Positions 38,109-49,084 are shown, counted from the stretch's first letter. The stretch is DNA of 64,000 nt from Promethearchaeota archaeon (GCA_048938445.1 JBHLME010000005.1:654-64653), one strand, 5' to 3'. Translations and numbers: made by a program. Notes: generated by a model from the letters alone, not told the origin.

Positions 38109-39284
38109 ATGCAATTAGGCGGGCTTATAAAAAAAGAATTTGGCAGGATAAGAAGTGACACTCGAACATTAATGCTGTTGTTTGTAATTCCCTTGCTTTT
38201 AATAGTGATTTTTGGTTTAACGACTGGAGGGGGTCCCACCAAGTTTTTCACGGCAGTAATCATAACTAAGGACAGCATGCCATGTGAAGGAAGCATGTCT
38301 ACAAATGCTACTTATGATGCAACATTTATATCCGTAGTAAGGGATAATTGTTCTCAGTTTGGTTTTTATAATGCTTATAACAGCACTTCAGACGAAGAAT
38401 TTAAAATGCATTATAATATTGGATTAGCCCTTCTAAGAAGTGATATTATTGATGCAGTAATTATTTTACCTGAAAACTTCACTGAAATTATTGAAAACAT
38501 AACATCTGGTGATCCATCTATTAAATCAGTAAATCCTTATATCCTATATATTATTGATGGAACAGACTCACAAGCTTCTAAGGCTATAGATTTAGCAATT
38601 CAAGAACCTATAATGTTATTCAGATTACAAATTGGATTAACAGAAAATCTTACAACGATGATACCTTCTTTAGAATATTCAGTTCCATCTTGGGAAAGCC
38701 AAATGTTAAATTTTGCTCTTGGAATGATGTTGCCTATAATTATTATTGGCACGACAATGAATTTAACATCTTTAAGTATAGTTTCTGAGGGCCCTCTTCC
38801 AAGAATGATGCTAACTCCAACTGCTAAAAATGAAATCATGGTTAGTAAATTAATTGCAAATGTTGTAATTATGGTTCTTCAATCTACAGAAATATTTGTA
38901 ATGACTTCTTTTTTTGGATTATATTCTTTGGGTTCGTTATTTGATTTGTATTTCACAATGCTTTTAACAGGATTGTGTGGTGTTTGTATAGGATTATTTA
39001 TTTCTTCACTAGCAACAACAGAACAAGTTGCTAATCAAATGTACTTGATATTTTTTATAGTCCTCATGGTGTTTTCGGGATCCTTCTATGATAGTGGGAG
39101 CTCTTCAGCAATGTATAATATTTCTAAGCTTTTCCCTCTAATACATTCAAGTGGATTAATGGTGGATGTGACTTTAAAAGGATTACCCCTTGATATTACT
39201 GCTGTGTTAAGCCTTATAGTAATAAGCGCTTTCTATCTTTTCGCAGCATATTTCATTTATCGATTTAAAAAAGTGGAGGTTTAA
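38109..39284 (+). CDS. ABC-2 type permease (1 TM + large extracytoplasmic loop + 5 TM)
   Basis: 391 aa. LIKKEFGRIRSDTRTLMLLFVIPLLLIVIFG start, a sequon-rich loop of about 160 aa, then five C-terminal helices. Confidence 0.75.
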   Translation: MQLGGLIKKEFGRIRSDTRTLMLLFVIPLLLIVIFGLTTGGGPTKFFTAVIITKDSMPCEGSMSTNATYDATFISVVRDNCSQFGFYNAYNSTSDEEFKMHYNIGLALLRSDIIDAVIILPENFTEIIENITSGDPSIKSVNPYILYIIDGTDSQASKAIDLAIQEPIMLFRLQIGLTENLTTMIPSLEYSVPSWESQMLNFALGMMLPIIIIGTTMNLTSLSIVSEGPLPRMMLTPTAKNEIMVSKLIANVVIMVLQSTEIFVMTSFFGLYSLGSLFDLYFTMLLTGLCGVCIGLFISSLATTEQVANQMYLIFFIVLMVFSGSFYDSGSSSAMYNISKLFPLIHSSGLMVDVTLKGLPLDITAVLSLIVISAFYLFAAYFIYRFKKVEV

Positions 39285-39288
39285 ATTA

Positions 39289-40515
39289 ATTATTTCAAAA
39301 CAAAAAAAGAAAGGACAAAGATTTTCTTTCAAAAACCAAAAAGCGAGTATTCATAGGCTGATAAATCAAATTAAAAAAGAATTTAGACTACTTTGGACTG
39401 ACAAGTTTAATATTTTCCTTGCTTTAGTATTACCTCCTTTAATAATTTTATTGATTTCATTCATATCTACATCTCAAGCGGGAATTACAACAGTAGATTG
39501 TGTTATTGTATCTTATGATTCAAACACATTTATTAATCCTAATAATTTAACTGAATCTGCTAATGCAAATTATACATTACCATATGTGCAAGCAGTAAAT
39601 CTTTCTGAATATTTAAATCCAATCGAACCTGAAACACTTTTCTTTAATGCTAGTGAGGATATATATGCTCTAGAAAGGGCAAGGGATTATTTGAAAGCAG
39701 GTATAATTAGCATTATTATTGTAATTCCCATAGATTTTTCTGAAATGATATCATGGGGTTTGCCCGGAATTATTTCAGGTATAGTTGATGCTTCAGATAT
39801 TATGTCTATACAAGAGAATATGAATGCAGTTCAAGATTCTGTAAAAATATTTACAAGGGAAAATAATCTAACTCCTCAATTCATACTTAAAGGTATTGAT
39901 GAAATAGCAATACCCTCAACTTTCAGTCCTGGATTTAATACTTTAGTTGTTTTTATTTTACCTTTGTTTTCATTCGGTCTTGCAATGGTTCTTAGTATTC
40001 TTGTTGTGGTTAAAGAAAAACCAATTGCTAGGTTATTGTTGACACCTGTGAAGAGATTTGAGATACTCTTGTCTAAATACGTTACTTATGCAACAATATT
40101 AACAATACAATCACTATTATTGATATACATGTCAATTACCCAAGGCCTTTATTGTGCAGGGAGTGTAATTGATTTATTTATTGCATTATTTATACTTGGT
40201 TTTACAGGATTAGGATTAGGTTTATTTGTTTCTAGTCTTTCTAAAACGAAAACTGAAGCAAATCAATATTTCTTCATGCTTTTCATTCTAATAATCCTTT
40301 TAAGTGGTTTATTTATCCCAATAGATTCAATGCCAATATATCTACAATTCATTGCTTGGTTACTACCACTGAGTCATGCAAATCCCATGATTAATGGAAT
40401 TTTAACCAAAGGTAACTCTGTATTTGGATTTCATTTTTATTGGTTATTAGGTATAGGTATCTTTCTTTTCATACTAAGTTTTATAATATTTCAAAGAAAA
40501 CAATATGAGGCCTAA
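39289..40515 (+). CDS. ABC-2 type permease, second copy; start uncertain
   Basis: The track starts at TTG 39451, but the frame is open from 39226. It encodes HRLINQIKKEFRLLWTDKFNIFLALVLPPLIIL, which parallels the N-terminus and TM1 of the first permease. There is no ATG/GTG/TTG there. ATT 39289 sits 8 nt after GGAGGT (39275-39280). Confidence 0.65.
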   Translation: MISKQKKKGQRFSFKNQKASIHRLINQIKKEFRLLWTDKFNIFLALVLPPLIILLISFISTSQAGITTVDCVIVSYDSNTFINPNNLTESANANYTLPYVQAVNLSEYLNPIEPETLFFNASEDIYALERARDYLKAGIISIIIVIPIDFSEMISWGLPGIISGIVDASDIMSIQENMNAVQDSVKIFTRENNLTPQFILKGIDEIAIPSTFSPGFNTLVVFILPLFSFGLAMVLSILVVVKEKPIARLLLTPVKRFEILLSKYVTYATILTIQSLLLIYMSITQGLYCAGSVIDLFIALFILGFTGLGLGLFVSSLSKTKTEANQYFFMLFILIILLSGLFIPIDSMPIYLQFIAWLLPLSHANPMINGILTKGNSVFGFHFYWLLGIGIFLFILSFIIFQRKQYEA

Positions 40516-40523
40516 TATCAAAA

Positions 40524-41525
40524 ATGACTGTGAAATCTAATAAAGTAGTCGTTGAAATAAACAATTTAAATGTAAAATTTGGAAAGAAAAGAGTCGTTAA
40601 AAATGTTTCATTATCAGTAAGGTCAGGGGAAATAATTGGAGTGTTTGGAATTTCAGGTGCTGGTAAAACCACTATGATTAGAGTATTAACTTGTCAAATC
40701 AAGAAAAAAAATTGGTTTGGAGATGTAAAGGTTACGGGAAGATCTCCAGCAAGAAAAAAAAATCACTCAAAGATCTTGAGTAAAATTGGATACGTTCCAC
40801 AATTAGAAGAATTAAATTTATATTATGATTTTAAGCCAATCGCTAATATTGACACGTTTGCTTCTATATATGGAATGGATGTCAAGGAGGCTAAAAAGAT
40901 TGCAGAGAATCTCTTTACAATATTAGACATACCTGAGGATACATGGAAAAAAAAGCTTAGAAAAATGAGTGGTGGGGAAAAAAAAAGAGTTTCAATGGCA
41001 TTAGGACTAATTCATCAACCAGAAATCTTATTTTTAGATGAACCTACTACGGGTGTGGATGCATATAAGAGATACTCAATACTAAGTTATTTAAAAAAAT
41101 TGAACAGAGAATTAGGAACCACAATGTTCATTATAAGCCATGATATGGAATGTTCTCTTGTTTGTGATAAAGCAGCAATAATGCGTGATGGGTCATTACT
41201 CGAGTTTGGAAAACCCGCAGATTTAATAGCTTCACTTCCCAGTAATGGGATAATTGCAACTTTTGCAATTGAAGGTATTAACGAGCAAAAAATTGACCTT
41301 ATAAGAAAGTTTGAACCTGTTATTAATATCATTAGAGCAGGAAATGACGTTATTGAAGTTTTATTAGAAGATTATGAAAAAAATATTTCAAAATTAATTG
41401 AATTCATGATTAAGGAGGATTTAAAAATAAATTCCATGTCTAGAGAAACAGCTACATTTAGGAGATATTTTCAAATCCGAGTTCAAGAAGAAGAAGAAAA
41501 AGAACGAGCATTGCTAGATGAATAA
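40524..41525 (+). CDS. ABC transporter ATP-binding protein
   Basis: 333 aa. Walker A GISGAGKTT, signature MSGGEKKRVS, Walker B ILFLDEPTTGVD, H-loop IISHD. Extra C-terminal domain of about 100 aa. Confidence 0.9.
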   Translation: MTVKSNKVVVEINNLNVKFGKKRVVKNVSLSVRSGEIIGVFGISGAGKTTMIRVLTCQIKKKNWFGDVKVTGRSPARKKNHSKILSKIGYVPQLEELNLYYDFKPIANIDTFASIYGMDVKEAKKIAENLFTILDIPEDTWKKKLRKMSGGEKKRVSMALGLIHQPEILFLDEPTTGVDAYKRYSILSYLKKLNRELGTTMFIISHDMECSLVCDKAAIMRDGSLLEFGKPADLIASLPSNGIIATFAIEGINEQKIDLIRKFEPVINIIRAGNDVIEVLLEDYEKNISKLIEFMIKEDLKINSMSRETATFRRYFQIRVQEEEEKERALLDE

Positions 41526-41599
41526 ATAAAATAATAAAAAATAAATATAAGAGGTAAAATGATAAAAAAAAAGAAAAGCATCTAAATAGGTGAGATTTT

Positions 41600-44500
41600 A
41601 TAAAACTTAAATCAAATATAAAAAAAGTAAACTCCCGTATTAAGGAAATTTTTAAAGTAAGTCCAAAGTTTAAGAAAAAAGTTAAGCTTTCAGTAATTAT
41701 CTTAATTCTTTTTTTAATTCCTTTAATTGGAATGATACTAGTTAATATTCCATATATTTCATATTTTTCACCTGAGGAAGTTCATAATTATAAAGATAAC
41801 ATGTATATTTTTTCAAATTCTCATAAAAATCCCATTTCAGGGCTATTTATTGAACCAGAAATAGATATCAATTTCCACATTATAGACGCTATAAATTGGA
41901 CTGATTTTAATCCTACTTTATTCAATTTGATAGATCCCAGAAATAATCCTTATATGGAAAATAAGCCATTTTTCTTCTTAGATTATCTTTTTGGTAAACA
42001 AAATAACGATGGGTCATTCTCAGATATTGGATATTTAGGTAACATGTTCTCAACCTATGAAGTCGTTCAAACAATAAATCTCCTTAATGATACTTTTATA
42101 AATCCTACTCAGAAACAAGATGAAATTGATAAGATGATTCAATTTGTTAATAATTCACTGGATAATGATCCTGTTTATGAAAATAGCTCAGGATTTAAGT
42201 TAAATTCATTTTCAATGAGCCCAGATATTATTTCAACGAGTAATGCTATAGCATTGATAAATAATTTTTCGGTACCTGGAATTTTAAATAATGAGAACAT
42301 ATCTACTTATATTAATAGTTCAAGAGTAGCTGGTGGATACAGCTTAGACTCTCTGACATTCACTCCAGATCCAGAAAGTACATATTATGGTATCGAAGCG
42401 TTTTTAAACATGAATATGACATATAATTCAGGAGATTTAATTACATCTTGGGGATATTTCAGTTCATTGTATAATAATGAAACAGGTGGATTTTCAAGCT
42501 TACCGTTTAATGCTTCAGATGTTCAATCAACGTTTTATGTTATTTCTTCAGTTGAACGTCTAGGATTACCACCTCTTTTATACTATAATGAGAACAAAAC
42601 ATTAGAATTCATTCTAAATTGTTCAAATTCTGATGGTGGATTTGGTTTATTCATAAATGATACTACTTCAGATTTTAAGTCTGGATGGGCAGCGATGAAA
42701 TCACTAACACTTCTTGAAAAAATATCTGATTTTAATTCATCTCAAATAGATTCAATAAACCAAGTGCGGGAAAAATACTATTATTGGCTTTCAGAGTACC
42801 AAGCTTCTAATGGATTATTTGGACATATTACAATTGAATCAAATTATTATGGAGTGTTATCAGCAATTCAATATTATCCTTCAAGTTTTTTAAAATATAT
42901 CGATGTTCAGAATATCTTTAACTATATTAATAGTTGTTATTCTTTAGAAGATGGTGGATATGCCAACAGGCCTGGACTGAATTCTAGTCTATACGCAACA
43001 TATTTAGCAATAGAGATGTACGATATTTTTTCTCACTATTTTGATGATTTGGTGCTTCATAACAAAACCGCAACAAGAATTTACTTAGCATCATTACAAA
43101 ATAGCGATGGAGGTTTTAAAATAGGTATTGACATAGATGATTTATATAAACAACTAGGTTCATTTGCATTTATCATTACTTCATTAATTAATTCAAATAT
43201 TTCTACGGTTGAAAGTACTTATTGGGCAATTGTTTCTTTAGAAAAATTAGATGCTCTCTCTATGATCGATGAAAAAAATTTTACTCATTGGATTAGATCA
43301 TGTCAAAATTCAGATGGTGGATTTGGACTCTTCCTAGGATTTACTTATAGCGATATAGTCTCAACTTATTATGCTTTACATCTTTTTAAATATTTTAACA
43401 GTGAACCTATATCTAAAATTCAATCTATTTCTTTTTTAAAAAATGCTCAACAGTCTGATGGAAGTTTCTCACCATTACCCACGCTTTCAATACTTGGCCT
43501 AGAAATAAGTTTATTTACAACAACATATATGGCTGCTAAGGCTTTGTATGATTTTGCTTATCAAGCAGAAGATATTCAGGGATTTTTAGGGTGGTATGAA
43601 CTTTGTATTGATAATAATACAGGTGGTGTCGGAGATTATCAAGGATTTGGTGGTGATTTAAGAAATACTCCATATGGTATGATTATAATTGATGATTTGA
43701 GATATGATAGGGCTTTTGATCCTGAACCTTGGACAACTTTATTTATGAGAATTATAATTTTAGAATTTTTAATAATAGCATTTTTTATAGCATATAACAC
43801 TGTAAATAAAGTAAATACGATATTATATAAAAGAATTAAAAAGGCTTTTCGAATTACTGATAAATTAGATATAACCTACCTCAAAAGATATCCTGCGATA
43901 CACTGTGAAGATTTGAGTATATATGCTGGTAGAAAATTAATTGTTAATTCAATGTCTTTAACTTTAGAGCATGGTGAAATTTTAGGCGTTTTAGGGGAGA
44001 GCGGTGCGGGAAAATCTACCTTTGTGAAAAGTTTACTTGGAATGCGTAAATTTTCTGGAATAAACCAAGTATATGGCATGGATGTAAAGAAAAAATCAAA
44101 AAAGATGAGACCAATATATGGGTATGTACCTCAAGATTTAAGTAAGATTTATCAAGACTTTACTACCTACCAAAATATCTTATATTTTGCTAAACAATAT
44201 GGTCTAAGTGAACGAGATATAAGAAGAAAAGCTAAAAGAATTTTACGCAGTTTAGAAATTGAGGATAAAATGCATCAGCAAGTAAAAAATTTGTCTGGTG
44301 GTCAAAAAAGGAGAGTAAGCATTGCAATTGGATTAATTCATGACCCCGTAATTGTTTGGATGGATGAGCCGACTTCTGGATTAGACCCAGTAGTTCGTGA
44401 AAATTTATGGCACGCATTAACGAAAATAAATGAAGAATTTAACACTACTTTGATAGTAATCACACATTACCCTGAAGAATCACGTTTTTGCAATAAAGTA

Positions 44501-44836
44501 GCAATTTTTGGGAGAGGGAGAGGTATGATTGATTTTGGTACCCCTCAAGATCTATTATCTCAATTACCTGGAGGTGGAAGAACCATTGATTTAAGCTTTA
44601 GTGAAGTACAAATAAATGCTATAAAAAGGCTCGAAGCTATTGAAGGGATAGATAAAGCTTTAGAAAATAAAGCTAGTTTAGAATATTCAATTCTTTCCAA
44701 TTTAAGATTACGTGAATTAATTAGTAAAATTGAGCTTGAATTTGGTTTGAGTTCAATTCTAGAAATAAAGCAATCAGAATCAAAGATGGAACAATATTTC
44801 CGTTATAAAGCAATGGAAGTTCCAAAAGAAGAATAA
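41600..44836 (+). CDS. extracytoplasmic prenyltransferase/terpene-cyclase-type alpha/alpha toroid - single TM - ABC ATPase fusion
   Basis: First ATG is at 41732, but the upstream in-frame KFKKKVKLSVIILILFLIPLIG signal anchor has no canonical start (ATA 41600 lies after AGGTGA). About ten DGGF-type repeats (NSDGGFGLF twice, EDGGYA, QSDGSFS ...). TM WTTLFMRIIILEFLIIAFFIAY. Walker A GESGAGKST, LSGGQKRRVS, VWMDEPTSGLD. Confidence 0.8.
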   Translation: MKLKSNIKKVNSRIKEIFKVSPKFKKKVKLSVIILILFLIPLIGMILVNIPYISYFSPEEVHNYKDNMYIFSNSHKNPISGLFIEPEIDINFHIIDAINWTDFNPTLFNLIDPRNNPYMENKPFFFLDYLFGKQNNDGSFSDIGYLGNMFSTYEVVQTINLLNDTFINPTQKQDEIDKMIQFVNNSLDNDPVYENSSGFKLNSFSMSPDIISTSNAIALINNFSVPGILNNENISTYINSSRVAGGYSLDSLTFTPDPESTYYGIEAFLNMNMTYNSGDLITSWGYFSSLYNNETGGFSSLPFNASDVQSTFYVISSVERLGLPPLLYYNENKTLEFILNCSNSDGGFGLFINDTTSDFKSGWAAMKSLTLLEKISDFNSSQIDSINQVREKYYYWLSEYQASNGLFGHITIESNYYGVLSAIQYYPSSFLKYIDVQNIFNYINSCYSLEDGGYANRPGLNSSLYATYLAIEMYDIFSHYFDDLVLHNKTATRIYLASLQNSDGGFKIGIDIDDLYKQLGSFAFIITSLINSNISTVESTYWAIVSLEKLDALSMIDEKNFTHWIRSCQNSDGGFGLFLGFTYSDIVSTYYALHLFKYFNSEPISKIQSISFLKNAQQSDGSFSPLPTLSILGLEISLFTTTYMAAKALYDFAYQAEDIQGFLGWYELCIDNNTGGVGDYQGFGGDLRNTPYGMIIIDDLRYDRAFDPEPWTTLFMRIIILEFLIIAFFIAYNTVNKVNTILYKRIKKAFRITDKLDITYLKRYPAIHCEDLSIYAGRKLIVNSMSLTLEHGEILGVLGESGAGKSTFVKSLLGMRKFSGINQVYGMDVKKKSKKMRPIYGYVPQDLSKIYQDFTTYQNILYFAKQYGLSERDIRRKAKRILRSLEIEDKMHQQVKNLSGGQKRRVSIAIGLIHDPVIVWMDEPTSGLDPVVRENLWHALTKINEEFNTTLIVITHYPEESRFCNKVAIFGRGRGMIDFGTPQDLLSQLPGGGRTIDLSFSEVQINAIKRLEAIEGIDKALENKASLEYSILSNLRLRELISKIELEFGLSSILEIKQSESKMEQYFRYKAMEVPKEE

Positions 44837-44860: not shown

Positions 44861-46576
44861 TTGACAGAAATTTCAAGAGAAAAGGAACTGGAGATGCTTC
44901 GTTTGAAAATAATTGAAGCTATTCGATTCTCTACACGATATTGGATGATATTCAAAGAGAAAACATTCGGTATTGCCACAATCTTGGATTTAATATATAA
45001 AAAATCATATATTGAAGTTTTATTTTTTACAAATTATGATGTTATGGAATTAGGAGTACCACTTTTAAAAATATATACCCCAATTGAAACTGAGGTAAAC
45101 TTAAATGAGATTCTCCTTGAACCTGATTTTGATAAGGATGGCCTCATAAGCCCCGTAAAAATTATTAAAAAAGTAAATCAATTAATAAAGAAAGAATTTG
45201 AGCATCATATCGCTGTATTGGATGAAGAAGTTAGATTACTTAACGAAAAATATGAAAATTATGAATTAAATGATATTCCCTACAATAGAGAAATAATTAT
45301 TTTTTTCCCCACGTTTACTTTAGATTTAAAAATAAACTTTGAAAAATATCCTCTCATTCCCAATATTTCATTTTCAGATGAATTATCTAAAATTATCACG
45401 ATAAATGAATTTCTTGAAACTGAAATGTTTATAAATTGGAATCCCGAGTACCCTATTCATGTTATTCATATTATAGAGGAATTAATTAATATTATTACGA
45501 AACGTTTAAAAATAAAAAATTTACCTGAGGATTCTCAACATCTTTTAATTAAAAAAGTATCAGTTGGAAATAATATTAAAAACCTTTCATTTAAAATGCT
45601 AAGAGGAACGACAATTGGAATTCATTATGAGGAAGATCAATTTAAATCCAATATTGGTGAAATTTCAAGTATTTTAGACTTTTTTGAAGCAATTATGGGA
45701 ATTAACTCTTCTTTTTCTGGAGTAATCAAGGTTTTTGGCAAAAATATTCAATTAGCCTTAAAAAGTGAATTGGATAAAATCACAATGATTAGCACAAATA
45801 TCGATTCGAATATAAAAAATGTAACAGTAAAAAAAATTCTCAGCAAGGAATTTGACTTAAAATCTGATTGGAAAGATTTTAAAGAGCAAATGGGAAGTAT
45901 AAATAAAAAAATAGGCATAAATTTCATTAAAGGGGAATTAGGATTCAAGACTCTAAATCGAAATTATAAAAAAAATATTATAAATCAAATTTTAAAAGTT
46001 TCTGGATTATTGGATAGAAAAAATGATAAAATTAGAGATTTAACTCTGATAGAAACATTATTATTTTCTATTTCACGAGCGATAATAAGTTTACCACATA
46101 TAATTTTATTATCAGCTCCTAATATTAATTTTGGAAGATCTGAAATTGAAAAGTTTAATAAATGCATAAAAAAATTTAAAAAAGATTATAATGTCTCTTT
46201 TATAATTCATGGAACTAAAGATATTCTTTCTATATGTGATCAAATCATTAATATTACTCCGGAAATGACTGAAATTGGATCAATCGATGATTATTTACAA
46301 AAATTACCACAATCTGGAGAAATTCTTACGATTGAATTAAGCCGTCCAAATTTAACAGCTATAAAGCAAATGTTAAAAATGGATTCTGTTATTTTTATTG
46401 AAGAACGAAGGAATGAGAAATATAAACTGTTTATTCAAGAAAATCCTGAAAAGATTATCATATTTTTATTAGAATTATTTGGTTCTAAACTATATAATTT
46501 TCGACGTTTTAGAGCAACTTTGGGAGAATATTTAGAATTTTTAGAATATAAAAAATATGGAAGGATATATAAATGA
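44861..46576 (+). CDS. degenerate (catalytically dead) ABC ATPase-like protein with unique N-terminal domain
   Basis: 571 aa. The C-terminal half is collinear with an NBD, but Walker A is replaced by GIHYEEDQFKSNIG, the signature by LTLIETLLFSISRA and Walker B by IILLSAPN. H-loop-like IIHGT is retained. Confidence 0.55.
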   Translation: MTEISREKELEMLRLKIIEAIRFSTRYWMIFKEKTFGIATILDLIYKKSYIEVLFFTNYDVMELGVPLLKIYTPIETEVNLNEILLEPDFDKDGLISPVKIIKKVNQLIKKEFEHHIAVLDEEVRLLNEKYENYELNDIPYNREIIIFFPTFTLDLKINFEKYPLIPNISFSDELSKIITINEFLETEMFINWNPEYPIHVIHIIEELINIITKRLKIKNLPEDSQHLLIKKVSVGNNIKNLSFKMLRGTTIGIHYEEDQFKSNIGEISSILDFFEAIMGINSSFSGVIKVFGKNIQLALKSELDKITMISTNIDSNIKNVTVKKILSKEFDLKSDWKDFKEQMGSINKKIGINFIKGELGFKTLNRNYKKNIINQILKVSGLLDRKNDKIRDLTLIETLLFSISRAIISLPHIILLSAPNINFGRSEIEKFNKCIKKFKKDYNVSFIIHGTKDILSICDQIINITPEMTEIGSIDDYLQKLPQSGEILTIELSRPNLTAIKQMLKMDSVIFIEERRNEKYKLFIQENPEKIIIFLLELFGSKLYNFRRFRATLGEYLEFLEYKKYGRIYK

Positions 46577-46587
46577 GTTGAATAATA

Positions 46588-47355
46588 ATGATAAAAAGTA
46601 TATATATAATGCTTGATAACGGAATTTTACTATTTTCAAAAAATTTCGTGGAAATTAAATATGATAATAATTTACTTATTGGTTTCTTTGCCTCAATAGC
46701 TAATTTTAGCAGGGAAGCTTTAAAGAGTGTTGTAAAAACCGTAGATCTTGGCGAAGAGAATAAGTTAGTTCTTCATCCTCGAACTAAAGAAAAGTTATTA
46801 AGTGCTGCTATTGTAAGTACGACAGATAATAATTCTCTTATAATAGATATTTTAAATAACCTAATGTTAGATTTTACGCATGAATTTACTTCATATGATA
46901 ATCCTGATAATATAGATAAAATGACGGCAGAAAAATTAGTTTCAGATAATTTACGAAGGAAAATCTTTCCATCGATTCCAAAACTTATACTGGTTTCAAT
47001 CGCATTATTAACTCCTCTCTTATCAATATTAATTGTTTTAAGCATTTATATAACGAATACATTTCAAAATTTATTCGAACACGTTCAACCTGCTTTAATT
47101 TTATACACGTCCATAACACTTTTGTTATTAACATTAGTTCCCAATTTAATATCTGGGTTTTTAGCGCCGGATAGACGTTATGCATTATTCAATACATTTG
47201 TGATCATCATTATTGAAGTAGCTGTTTATATTGCTTTTGTGGAAAGACTTTTTATACAAATAACATTGGCAAATCTTCCTATAAATTTCATTCTTTCTCT
47301 AGCTTCTGCATATTTTGGATTGAGATTATCTTCACGCAAATACTTAAAAAAATAA
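46588..47355 (+). CDS. longin-like domain protein with four C-terminal TM helices
   Basis: 255 aa. MIKSIYIMLDNGILLFSKNF...LLIGFFASIANFSREAL...KLVLHPRTKEKLLSAAIVSTTD...LIIDILNNLMLDFTHEF has the beta-beta-alpha-beta-beta-beta-alpha order and an AP-sigma/longin-like N-terminus. Four hydrophobic helices follow. Starts 11 nt after the previous stop. Confidence 0.5.
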   Translation: MIKSIYIMLDNGILLFSKNFVEIKYDNNLLIGFFASIANFSREALKSVVKTVDLGEENKLVLHPRTKEKLLSAAIVSTTDNNSLIIDILNNLMLDFTHEFTSYDNPDNIDKMTAEKLVSDNLRRKIFPSIPKLILVSIALLTPLLSILIVLSIYITNTFQNLFEHVQPALILYTSITLLLLTLVPNLISGFLAPDRRYALFNTFVIIIIEVAVYIAFVERLFIQITLANLPINFILSLASAYFGLRLSSRKYLKK

Positions 47356-47392: not shown

Positions 47393-49084
47393 GTGATTAT
47401 AATGGAAGAAGAATTAATCGCAAAATTATTTGACCAAGGTTGGAATTATAAAAATAGAAATAATATTCTTGAACGATTAAAAAGTAATACCTATAATATT
47501 ATAGTAATTGGAGGAGGTATAACTGGAGCCGGAGTTGCAAGAGAAGCGTCATTAAGAGGCCTTAGTGTAGCTTTAGTTGACATGCAAGATTTTGCTGCAG
47601 GGACATCCTCCCGTAGTTCAAAATTAGCTCATGGTGGAATCCGGTATCTTGATCAAGGAGAAACAGAATTAGTTGAAGAAGCTACCACTGAAAGAAATTG
47701 GCTTTTAGCACATTTGTCTCATTTAATAAGACCTATTCCATTTCTCTTTGGTTCATGGAAAGGAGGTTGGAGAAAAACTGTGATTAAAGGTGCAATTAAA
47801 ATTTATGATTTCCTTAGTGATACTAACCAAATATTTAAAAATTCAAATAAAGGAAAATGGTATGACGCTGAAGAAATAATTGAACTTGAACCTGAAATTA
47901 ATACAGAAGGCTTTTTGGGTGGGGGTATTTACTATGATAATAATGTTGATGATGCTAGATTAACACTTGAAACCATTAAAGAAGCTGTAATTCGAGGCGC
48001 AGATGCTTTAAATTATTGTAAAGTAATTGATTTTTTAAAAAAGGATGGAAAGATCGTAGGAGTAAAATGTAAAGATTTAGAACAAAATAATGAGTTTAAT
48101 ATAAATGGAAAATTGGTTATTAATGCTACAGGGATTTGGACTGATGAGTTAGTAGAACTATATCCTGTAAACGTGCCTGATCCTGTTATTCGTCCAACAA
48201 AAGGCGTTCATATAACATATAGACGTGAACATGTAGGAAATAAATTAGCTACTATTATTAAATCGATCACGGATGGTCGAGCGTTTTTTGTACTCCCAAG
48301 GGGGGATTTTACTGTTATTGGAACGACTGATACCGACTATACAGGTGATTTAACAAATCCATTCTGTGATAAAGAGGATGCAGATTATTTAATTACCTCA
48401 GTAAAACACTATTTTCCAAAAGCACGATTAGAATATGACAACATCATATCAACTTGGGCGGGAATTAGACCCTTAGTTATGCAAAAAGGCAAATCTGAAA
48501 GTGAAATTTCAAGGAAACACCTCATATTTTTCTCTGATGATAATTTATTAACTATTACCGGTGGAAAATTAACAACTTTCAGGAAAATGGCTGAAGATTT
48601 ATTTAAAGAAATAGAAATTAAGAAAATTTTTCCGATTATAGATAGAGAAGAAAATTTTTCTAAGCAAAAATATATCATTAGCCTTGATAAAGAAATGTGG
48701 TTAGATGAAGTCAAAAAGAGTGGGATTAATTTAGAAGATAACATTATTAAATTGTTGTACCAACAATATGGGCGGGGTTCCATTGAAATATTAACCATGA
48801 TTAAAAACGACCAGAGTTTAAAAGAGAGAATCATTGAAGATAATGACTTTATAAAAGCAGAAATATTATATATTTTGAGAAATGAATTAACTCCTCATTT
48901 AATTGATATTTTCTGCCGCCGTACTGAAATGGCTCTCTTTATTCATCATAAAATGCAAGTACAAGCAGCAAATATAGTAGCAGAGTTAATGGCTTCTGAA
49001 TATAATTGGAATGATGAAACCAAAGAAAAAGAAATAGAAATATATTCAGATTATGTTAAGAAAACTATTTCTTTCTTGAAATAA
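47393..49084 (+). CDS. FAD-dependent glycerol-3-phosphate dehydrogenase (GlpA/GlpD family)
   Basis: 563 aa. VIGGGITGAGVAREASLRGLSVALVDMQDFAAGTSSRSSKLAHGGIRYL is the family N-terminus. The C-terminal alpha-helical domain is present. Confidence 0.8.
   Translation: MIIMEEELIAKLFDQGWNYKNRNNILERLKSNTYNIIVIGGGITGAGVAREASLRGLSVALVDMQDFAAGTSSRSSKLAHGGIRYLDQGETELVEEATTERNWLLAHLSHLIRPIPFLFGSWKGGWRKTVIKGAIKIYDFLSDTNQIFKNSNKGKWYDAEEIIELEPEINTEGFLGGGIYYDNNVDDARLTLETIKEAVIRGADALNYCKVIDFLKKDGKIVGVKCKDLEQNNEFNINGKLVINATGIWTDELVELYPVNVPDPVIRPTKGVHITYRREHVGNKLATIIKSITDGRAFFVLPRGDFTVIGTTDTDYTGDLTNPFCDKEDADYLITSVKHYFPKARLEYDNIISTWAGIRPLVMQKGKSESEISRKHLIFFSDDNLLTITGGKLTTFRKMAEDLFKEIEIKKIFPIIDREENFSKQKYIISLDKEMWLDEVKKSGINLEDNIIKLLYQQYGRGSIEILTMIKNDQSLKERIIEDNDFIKAEILYILRNELTPHLIDIFCRRTEMALFIHHKMQVQAANIVAELMASEYNWNDETKEKEIEIYSDYVKKTISFLK

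Follow-up and report, generated by a model that had tools for sequence, protein, structure and literature searches.

A prenyltransferase-like double toroid anchored in the membrane and joined to an ABC ATPase, encoded in a six-gene module of Asgard archaea

We analysed a 64,000-nucleotide stretch of DNA from a Promethearchaeota archaeon (GCA_048938445.1, JBHLME010000005.1:654-64653), called the window below, in which one reading frame at 41,600-44,836 joins an α-hairpin toroid region to a complete ATP-binding cassette (ABC) ATPase. The gene of this fusion protein is the fourth of six, the order being two ABC2_membrane_3 permeases, a stand-alone nucleotide-binding domain (NBD), the fusion, a protein with a dead NBD and a longin-like membrane protein. 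The G+C content of the window is about 29%, and the same-strand gene run spans 38.1-47.4 kb. The fusion frame opens after TGA 41591 and closes at 44836 on the + strand without interruption, and its product counted from ATA 41600 has 1078 residues. The following features lie in and just before this gene (aa, residues; TM1 and TM2, transmembrane helices; NBD2, the NBD of the fusion).

41559-41585, +: mini open reading frame (mini-ORF) MIKKKKSI* (ATG ATA AAA AAA AAG AAA AGC ATC TAA), in another frame, behind AGAGGT, just upstream of the fusion gene
41588-41602, +: Shine-Dalgarno-like AGGTGA, 6-nt spacer and ATA as proposed start (41600-41602); the in-frame TGA 41591-41593 closes the frame upstream
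41600-41686, +: predicted cytoplasmic K/R-rich N-terminal tail, aa 1-29, kept in the homologue P0002 (EIFKVSPKFK)
41687-41743, +: TM1/signal anchor LSVIILILFLIPLIGMILV, aa 30-48; hydropathy 3.16, AlphaFold2 helix 22-48, present in homologues
41744-42736, +: predicted extracellular barrel A, repeats 1-6, aa 49-379; hairpins in the AlphaFold2 model, ectodomain residues 141-327 aligned by geranylgeranyltransferase I (GGTase-I) β
42737-43735, +: predicted extracellular barrel B, repeats 7-12, aa 380-712; matched by the β subunits of Rab geranylgeranyltransferase (RabGGTase, 1.6e-26) and farnesyltransferase (FTase, 6e-17), profile against PDB
43622-43666, +: most conserved ectodomain motif in the family, (T)GGxGDxxxFGGDLRN, aa 675-689, in the last repeat
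43730-43795, +: TM2 WTTLFMRIIILEFLIIAFFIAY, aa 711-732; hydropathy 2.44, AlphaFold2 helix 708-749, K/R-rich on its C-terminal side
43796-43897, +: predicted cytoplasmic linker, aa 733-766; variable in length, low confidence at 745-754
43898-44569, +: NBD2, canonical ABC ATPase; ABC_tran PF00005 7.7e-26, above the cut-off, and NCBIfam DrrA 6.4e-52
43994-44020, +: Walker A GESGAGKST, read in frame
44126-44137, +: Q-loop VPQD, read in frame
44291-44320, +: signature LSGGQKRRVS, read in frame
44354-44386, +: Walker B/D-loop VWMDEPTSGLD, read in frame
44459-44470, +: H-loop ITHY, read in frame
44570-44836, +: C-terminal regulatory-type domain of ABC-2/ABCA NBDs, with the stop; found by Foldseek, the GldA model covering residues 723-1024

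An initial annotation of the locus had proposed repeats of the prenyltransferase/terpene-cyclase type, and Pfam agrees. Prenyltrans PF00432 matches the fusion protein in four stretches (E=1e-36), and matches to SQHop_cyclase_N/C are sub-threshold. About ten repeats had been noted, but the ectodomain between the two helices contains 12, of the type h..h.[CS]QN.DGGF ... SD..STYY. A family alignment of 44 sequences, the window protein and 43 relatives, was used for AlphaFold2 as well as for the conservation values and motif counts given below. The full-length model has a predicted local distance difference test (pLDDT) score of 87.5. Because its Foldseek list was dominated by NBD matches, the ectodomain was predicted and searched alone. 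The resulting model consists entirely of α-hairpins, with a pLDDT of 92.2 and a predicted template modelling score (pTM) of 0.92.

In the PDB, the best Foldseek match of the ectodomain is RabGGTase/GGTase-3 β (E=1e-9) with a target-normalised TM-score (TMt) of 0.71 over about 320 columns and a root-mean-square deviation (rmsd) of 3-4 Å, and these matches span only half of the query (query-normalised TM-score, TMq, 0.36). FTase and GGTase-I β come next, followed weakly by squalene-hopene and oxidosqualene cyclases. When profiles were compared with PDB sequences, RabGGTase β was found at 2e-25 with the whole ectodomain and at 1.6e-26 with its C-terminal half. Comparison of the two halves by hhalign shows that they are homologous (probability 99.7%, E=1e-26), barrel B being somewhat more conserved than barrel A (0.58 versus 0.52). 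Since the structural matches cover half of the query, both halves match prenyltransferase β and each half matches the other, the ectodomain is modelled as two tandem, homologous six-hairpin α/α barrels of the protein-prenyltransferase-β/terpene-cyclase superfamily. The single toroid of the initial annotation is thereby replaced by two. In the motif near the end of barrel B, G678, D679, F683, G684 and N689 are invariant and D686 and L687 nearly so, and the motif stands 23 residues from TM2 in all 44 sequences.

NBD2 is complete, as had been proposed. Walker A, LSGGQKRRVS, VWMDEPTSGLD and ITHY, together with the TM2 helix, were recovered in the 41600-44836 frame exactly where they had been placed, and all catalytic motif residues of NBD2 are invariant in the family. 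In NCBIfam, NBD2 is matched best by the DrrA, RbbA, NodI and GldA models, but no score comes near the curated cut-off (for the DrrA subfamily, 176.7 against 312 bits), so that the fusion protein is no equivalog of a named system. With the C-terminal domain included, NBD2 matches TM_1403 (4yer) in Foldseek with a TMt of 0.80 over 307 columns, and superposes on NosF of NosDFY (TMt 0.70-0.75) and on the units of NBD and R-domain in ABCA3, ABCA4, ABCA7 and ABCA1.

A scan for transmembrane helices found exactly two in the fusion protein, at aa 30-48 and 711-732. The signal anchor that had been suspected upstream is real and is kept in homologues, and the ectodomain is a loop between this anchor and TM2 rather than a domain tethered by one helix. 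Across the family, the flanks on the tail side and the NBD side carry 3.6 and 2.9 K/R per flank of up to 15 residues, and the flanks on the ectodomain side are acidic, with 0.95 and 1.4 K/R and 3.2-3.3 D/E. Two helices with positive-inside flanks give a predicted topology of N terminus in, ectodomain outside and NBD in the cytoplasm, in line with the earlier placement of toroid and NBD. N-glycosylation sequons number 19 in the window ectodomain versus 9.6 expected, and family-wide their density per 100 aa is 2.2 in the ectodomain versus 1.1 in the cytoplasmic part. The linker from TM2 to the NBD has 30-35 aa, being 31, 33 or 35 aa long in 42 of the 44 sequences. Its variable length, as against the fixed spacing of the DLRN motif from TM2, and its low pLDDT indicate a tether, not a rigid rod. 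The fusion protein is thus a membrane hairpin made of tail, TM1, a 664-aa all-helical ectodomain, TM2, linker, NBD and C-terminal domain.

A search for the same architecture found Prenyltrans with ABC_tran in more than 100 database clusters, far beyond chance. All clusters with a named source carry Asgard labels, namely Lokiarchaeota/Promethearchaeota, Hodarchaeota, Hermodarchaeota, Thorarchaeota and Sigynarchaeum. Among GTDB species representatives, full-length matches occur only in metagenome-assembled genomes labelled Promethearchaeota, Helarchaeota or 'uncultured archaeon', and beyond these there are only plain NBDs at about 30% identity. When the ectodomain was compared exhaustively with 1.84 billion representatives by HMMER, whole-domain matches came only from the fusion family, 24 of them at E<=1e-30; below that level there were only repeat-level matches in assorted surface proteins with PKD, immunoglobulin-like or collagen domains. 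An apparent Thermoplasmatota fusion, seen as 2.4-kb matches, was rejected, as it consists of two ordinary NBD genes with a permease between them. Automatic annotations name family members 'ATP-binding cassette domain-containing protein' or 'putative protein geranylgeranyltransferase type II', and our literature searches found neither a description nor a functional study of an NBD-toroid fusion or of the module, and nothing specific on Asgard prenyltransferase homologues. Incidentally, two distant surface proteins with multiple Prenyltrans repeats that the ectodomain query matched, P0182 and P0183, exceed the Pfam gathering cut-off of the Ribophorin_II N-terminal model (26.4 and 28.5 versus 23.4 bits), which hints that the N-terminal domain of this oligosaccharyltransferase subunit may be related to prokaryotic extracellular toroids.

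The other five genes of the module are as follows.

38109-39284, +: permease 1, 391 aa, with TM1, an extracellular domain of about 160 aa and 5 TM helices by TM scan; PF12698 3.7e-19
39289-40515, +: permease 2, about 408 aa, same layout as permease 1; PF12698 1.8e-22, candidate start ATT 39289, 9 nt after GGAGG
40524-41525, +: NBD1, stand-alone canonical DrrA-like ABC ATPase with C-terminal domain; ABC_tran 9.4e-24, NCBIfam DrrA 6.5e-54
44861-46576, +: p571, fifth gene, cytoplasmic, 571 aa; dead NBD fold with C-terminal domain, by profile against PDB
46588-47355, +: p255, sixth gene, 255 aa; longin-like N-terminal domain (about 110 aa) and 4 TM helices, by Pfam and TM scan

About 20 Asgard loci keep all six genes in this order, including loci at which the identity of the fusion protein has fallen to 35-38%, and neighbouring frames often overlap. 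In a Helarchaeota locus (L018), the module is rearranged. Beyond the six genes the flanks vary. In closer relatives (L001, L004, L005, L015, L084), not in distant ones, two window genes are syntenic with the module: an upstream gene of the RNase_H_2 superfamily (PF13482, 37036-38001) and a downstream gene (47393-49084) whose orthologue in L001 carries the DAO/DAO_C domains of FAD-dependent oxidoreductases. One Promethearchaeota locus, L002, has three small GTPase genes upstream of the module (L002 1-2845), Gtr1/RagA-like and Arf/Ras-like, and downstream (L002 20679-23204) a protein longer than 1470 aa that Prenyltrans matches weakly. These flanks are not kept at other loci.

The only solved relative of both permeases is ABCH-9C, aligned over residues 4-387 of permease 1 (E=5e-12) and matching permease 2 at 8.7e-12. 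This insect protein exports ceramide and cuticular lipids (PMC12578276). In Pfam, the permeases score with ABC2_membrane(_2/_3), not with FtsX or MacB_PCD, and a search for outgroups with permease 1 found only Asgard orthologues among the top 120 homologues. Defence models (PADLOC) gave only partial, NBD-level matches (mad3, mad8, AriA) to NBD1 and NBD2, and none to the other four proteins.

The last two genes encode less familiar partners. The C-terminal two-thirds of p571 have the NBD fold without Walker A, with LTxLE in place of the signature and without the D-E of Walker B; ABC NBDs are matched at 1e-12 over positions 335-500 (profile against PDB), and among 19 members Pfam reports ABC_tran in 4 and RWD in 1. 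Its N-terminal region has an invariant YP..P-type motif and faint E2/RWD matches (E about 0.005-0.5, E2 at 0.46). Thus p571 would be a pseudo-ATPase subunit, with an N-terminal region that is faintly UBC/RWD-like. In p255, longin matches are weak and found in some members (Sybindin 0.0069, Intu_longin_1 0.0042, Clat_adaptor_s 0.18). Such a longin-like domain would be a eukaryote-flavoured regulatory fold within an ABC transporter operon.

The initial annotation could assign an NBD without a multi-helix membrane domain of its own to no ABC class. The fusion with a toroid is indeed undescribed as far as we found, but a class can be named. Directly upstream, the conserved operon encodes two permeases and another NBD, so that the transmembrane domains of the fusion appear to be supplied in trans, with NBD1 as the partner ATPase. 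A DrrA-like NBD, an ABCA-type C-terminal domain and ABC2_membrane_3 neighbours together place the system, on sequence grounds, in the ABC-2/type V class (ABCA/ABCH/DrrAB-like) with transmembrane domains as separate polypeptides.

The start of the fusion gene affects how the protein is anchored. The first ATG, GTG or TTG in frame is ATG 41732 (Met-45), which lies inside TM1. Upstream of it the frame encodes a K/R-rich tail and the remaining helix, KFKKKVK-LSVIILILFLIPLIGMILV, and both are also encoded in homologues, such as P0002, which begins MKKKTISAVVRSSEIFKVSPKFKRKLKVFIIIAILILIPIIGMALVN. Within the window, ATA 41600 alone is plausible as the start. Two independent metagenome contigs, L084 (JGI) and L085 (ENA), encode proteins 60-65% identical to the window fusion. 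In all three, GGTGA-N6-ATA comes directly after an in-frame stop (window 41588-41602, L084 5900-5920, L085 1-20), and the tail after ATA is kept with synonymous differences. L085 has no canonical start ahead of the ectodomain. Of the 21 Asgard loci compared, 15 show an in-frame ATA, ATT or ATC that stands 6-7 nt after GGTGA, GGTGG or GGAGG; the corresponding codon is TTG in L025 and ATG in L003. In three of the 21 (L008, L019 and L023) no canonical start exists anywhere before the ectodomain. Because tail and TM1 are conserved and ATA follows a Shine-Dalgarno-like motif in independent assemblies, an AUA start was taken at 41600, and this is likely the true start of the gene rather than an assembly error. 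Consequently, database gene calls such as P0001 and P0004 (1034 aa) would be N-terminally truncated and lack TM1. Literature searches on AUA starts in Asgard archaea and in archaea found nothing specific.

Two other accounts of the 5′ end were rejected. Shifting frame within the A9 run would not connect ATG 41559 to the main frame, because −1 as well as +1 leads to a stop (TGA 41591, TAG). As for a diverged tandem duplication (41545-41610 versus 41598-41665), a repeat search was empty and the alignment has AT-rich similarity only. The eight-codon mini-ORF at 41559-41585 resembles the MKKKTIS start of the L001 homologue, and may encode a leader peptide or be what is left of an earlier start. 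When 17 window reading frames were compared with relatives, homology upstream of the first canonical start was found only for permease 2 and the fusion gene. Permease 2 likewise lacks a canonical start before its conserved TM1 KKEFRLLWTDKFNIFLALVLPPLIILLI (window 39226-39451), the first one being TTG 39451; its candidate starts are ATT 39289 or 39292, 9-12 nt after a GGAGG inside the end of permease 1. The 64-kb window has no tRNA, rRNA or Rfam family at gathering score.

We then consider what the ectodomain could do. It has no invariant His in the 44 sequences. In a hidden Markov model alignment to RabGGTase β, the Zn ligand Cys240 faces Glu and His290 faces Ser; the register is ambiguous owing to the repeats, yet no register gives a conserved His. 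The Cys that is conserved occupies a structural repeat position also present in RabGGTase β (SCQ). The general-acid motif DxDD is not conserved either, as D.DD/DDD strings occur in 5 of the 44 sequences at non-equivalent positions. A regular-expression search found the CGEQ-type thioester motif in 0 of 44 ectodomains, so that the earlier exclusion of an α2-macroglobulin-like protein or one resembling a thioester-containing domain (TED) holds, and Pfam detects no macroglobulin domains. No gene like a PPTA-repeat α-subunit lies in the conserved module, and Pfam gives no Cobalamin_bind or substrate-binding protein (SBP) signal at E<=0.01. With Zn ligands, DxDD and thioester all lost or never present, a binding or docking module is likelier than a canonical enzyme, and the ectodomain is probably non-catalytic.

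Compared with its relatives, the fusion shares the α/α six-hairpin barrel and the repeat signature with prenyltransferase β (RabGGTase/GGTase-3, FTase, GGTase-I). It differs in having two tandem barrels that lie outside the cell, not in the cytosol, with two membrane anchors and an ABC ATPase attached, no conserved Zn ligands (Asp/Cys/His) and no α subunit in the module. Squalene-hopene and oxidosqualene cyclases have a double α/α-barrel, as the fusion ectodomain does. These class II triterpene cyclases are membrane-associated, monotopic on the cytoplasmic side, and handle isoprenoid lipids, whereas the fusion ectodomain is predicted to be extracellular, in a bitopic arrangement, and has no DxDD. 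The whole double barrel matches 1sqc and 1w6k weakly (TMq 0.20-0.40, rmsd 13-24 Å). TEDs of α2-macroglobulin and complement belong to the same toroid superfamily and are extracellular, and PF07678 is listed for 2 homologues, but the fusion family lacks both CGEQ and macroglobulin domains.

On the transporter side, an ABC ATPase domain is as a rule either soluble or part of a polypeptide with a complete membrane domain. ABCA1, ABCA3, ABCA4 and ABCA7, ABCH-9C, DrrAB and YbhFSR-type systems resemble the Asgard module in the NBD with a regulatory domain, or in an ABC2_membrane_3 permease with an extracellular domain after TM1. In contrast to these exporters, the module has separate polypeptides for transmembrane domains and NBDs, both heterodimeric; one of its NBDs carries its own TM hairpin and double toroid, and two extra subunits are present (dead NBD and longin-like). 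LptB2FG-LptC, MlaFEDB and NosDFY also use an extra subunit with 1-2 TM helices to set an extracytoplasmic domain over the permeases. There, however, the accessory domain is a β-jellyroll, MCE or β-helix on a separate protein, whereas here it is an α/α double toroid on the ATPase. The type VII systems MacB, FtsX and LolCE have a four-helix FtsX-type permease whose extracytoplasmic domain lies between TM1 and TM2; the fusion itself has two TM helices, and its permeases are ABC-2.

We propose that the module may export a lipid or isoprenoid, which the tethered toroids would receive or dock, and we give this reading a probability of about 40%. The two permeases with NBD1 and NBD2 would form a heterodimeric exporter or extractor, and its cargo would be hydrophobic, probably an isoprenoid-based membrane component. 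The double toroid would be held over the extracellular domains of the permeases by the TM hairpin and the covalent link to NBD2, and would serve as a non-catalytic acceptor or docking chamber for extruded cargo, akin to the extracellular domains of ABCA proteins or to LptC. Fusion to the NBD would guarantee one toroid unit per transporter, while the dead-NBD protein and the longin-like membrane protein may be regulatory or assembly subunits. Known ligands of the toroid fold (FTase, GGTase, squalene-hopene cyclase) are isoprenoids. The lead toward lipids comes from these ligands and from ABCH-9C as the only solved relative of the permeases.

Several points weigh against the lipid exporter. The absence of catalytic residues says nothing positive on ligand binding. 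ABC-2 systems also move polysaccharides or drugs, or drive periplasmic events (NosDFY). Around the six, the neighbouring genes change from locus to locus and point to no pathway, and the nearest toroid relatives outside the family are surface proteins of no assigned function. Finally, the ectodomain has only about twice the expected number of sequons, and since the cytoplasmic part lies above its own shuffle expectation as well, this enrichment gives weak support for the topology.

First among the alternatives, the ATPase cycle could move the external toroids without transport, so that the toroids act mechanically on a target at the cell surface or signal to it (for instance the envelope, protrusions or a partner cell), as in NosDFY, FtsEX, MacB or LolCDE. 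The resemblance of NBD and C-terminal domain to NosF (TMt 0.70-0.75), the physical joining of NBD and ectodomain via TM2, the DLRN motif fixed at 23 residues from TM2 in 44 of 44 sequences and the regulatory-looking cytoplasmic partners encoded alongside would suit such mechanotransmission. Force would nevertheless be poorly transmitted by a variable linker that is predicted to be disordered, the permeases are ABC-2 and not of FtsX/MacB type, and the module encodes no candidate surface target. We hold this alternative to be unlikely, though less so than the two that follow.

Second, the toroids could capture an external nutrient or cofactor, like transcobalamin-type binders or fused substrate-binding domains, and feed an ABC-2 transporter that imports or flips inward. 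An extracellular location and lost catalytic residues would suit such a binding role, and some type V transporters import or flip inward, including ABCA4, which is among the structural matches. Characterised prokaryotic ABC-2 systems are, however, almost all exporters, Cobalamin_bind and SBP give no Pfam signal at E<=0.01, and no conserved metabolic genes for an imported substrate lie nearby, which makes uptake improbable.

Third, an extracellular enzyme could carry out prenyl transfer or cyclisation on a delivered lipid through a non-canonical site such as the cluster D679/D686/R688/N689. Enzymes are indeed the nearest relatives in sequence and fold (RabGGTase and FTase β at 1e-25 to 1e-26, and squalene-hopene-type cyclases), and the invariant acidic/basic motif is at hand. 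Still, the family lacks a conserved set of Zn ligands, an invariant His and DxDD, the module has no PPTA α-subunit gene, and no source of activated prenyl diphosphate exists outside the cell, so we consider catalysis quite doubtful.

An artefact (chimeric assembly, mis-called fusion of two neighbouring genes, or pseudogene) might be suspected from an ATG-defined frame that starts inside TM1 and from the stop at 41591 and the out-of-frame mini-ORF upstream, but it is effectively refuted by one uninterrupted frame of 1078 codons, by the recurrence of this fusion in over 100 clusters drawn from NCBI, JGI, ENA and Logan assemblies, and by tail and TM1, which are conserved at the protein level, with synonymous differences, in independent assemblies where the gene likewise begins with ATA.

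As far as we found, the covalent arrangement of NBD, TM hairpin and double toroid, the six-gene module and its restriction to Asgard archaea are new. The fusion shows another way in which ATP hydrolysis in the cytoplasm can be coupled to, or co-assembled with, an external domain. An apparent AUA start means that many public gene models are truncated, which would mislead predictions of topology and localisation.

A bolder picture, which we think rather unlikely in its entirety, is that of a machine peculiar to Asgard archaea, in which an ABCA/ABCH-like pump extracts isoprenoid lipids, or molecules linked to lipids, from the membrane and passes them to an external prenyl-binding double toroid wired covalently to the ATPase. 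In such a machine, the longin membrane protein and the UBC/RWD-like pseudo-ATPase would exert control, and the conserved AUA start would set expression. It would be an early, prokaryotic version of regulated lipid export as seen in eukaryotes, and the prenyltransferase-β fold might have come from it.

By source labels, the module spans the sampled Asgard lineages, Loki-/Promethearchaeota, Hel-, Hod-, Hermod-, Thor- and Sigynarchaeota. Eukaryotic proteins, namely the lipid exporters ABCA/ABCH and prenyltransferase β, are its nearest relatives of solved structure, and its partners are longin-like and faintly UBC/RWD-like. The module thus bears on how the isoprenoid membrane and the cell surface are handled in the archaeal relatives of eukaryotes.

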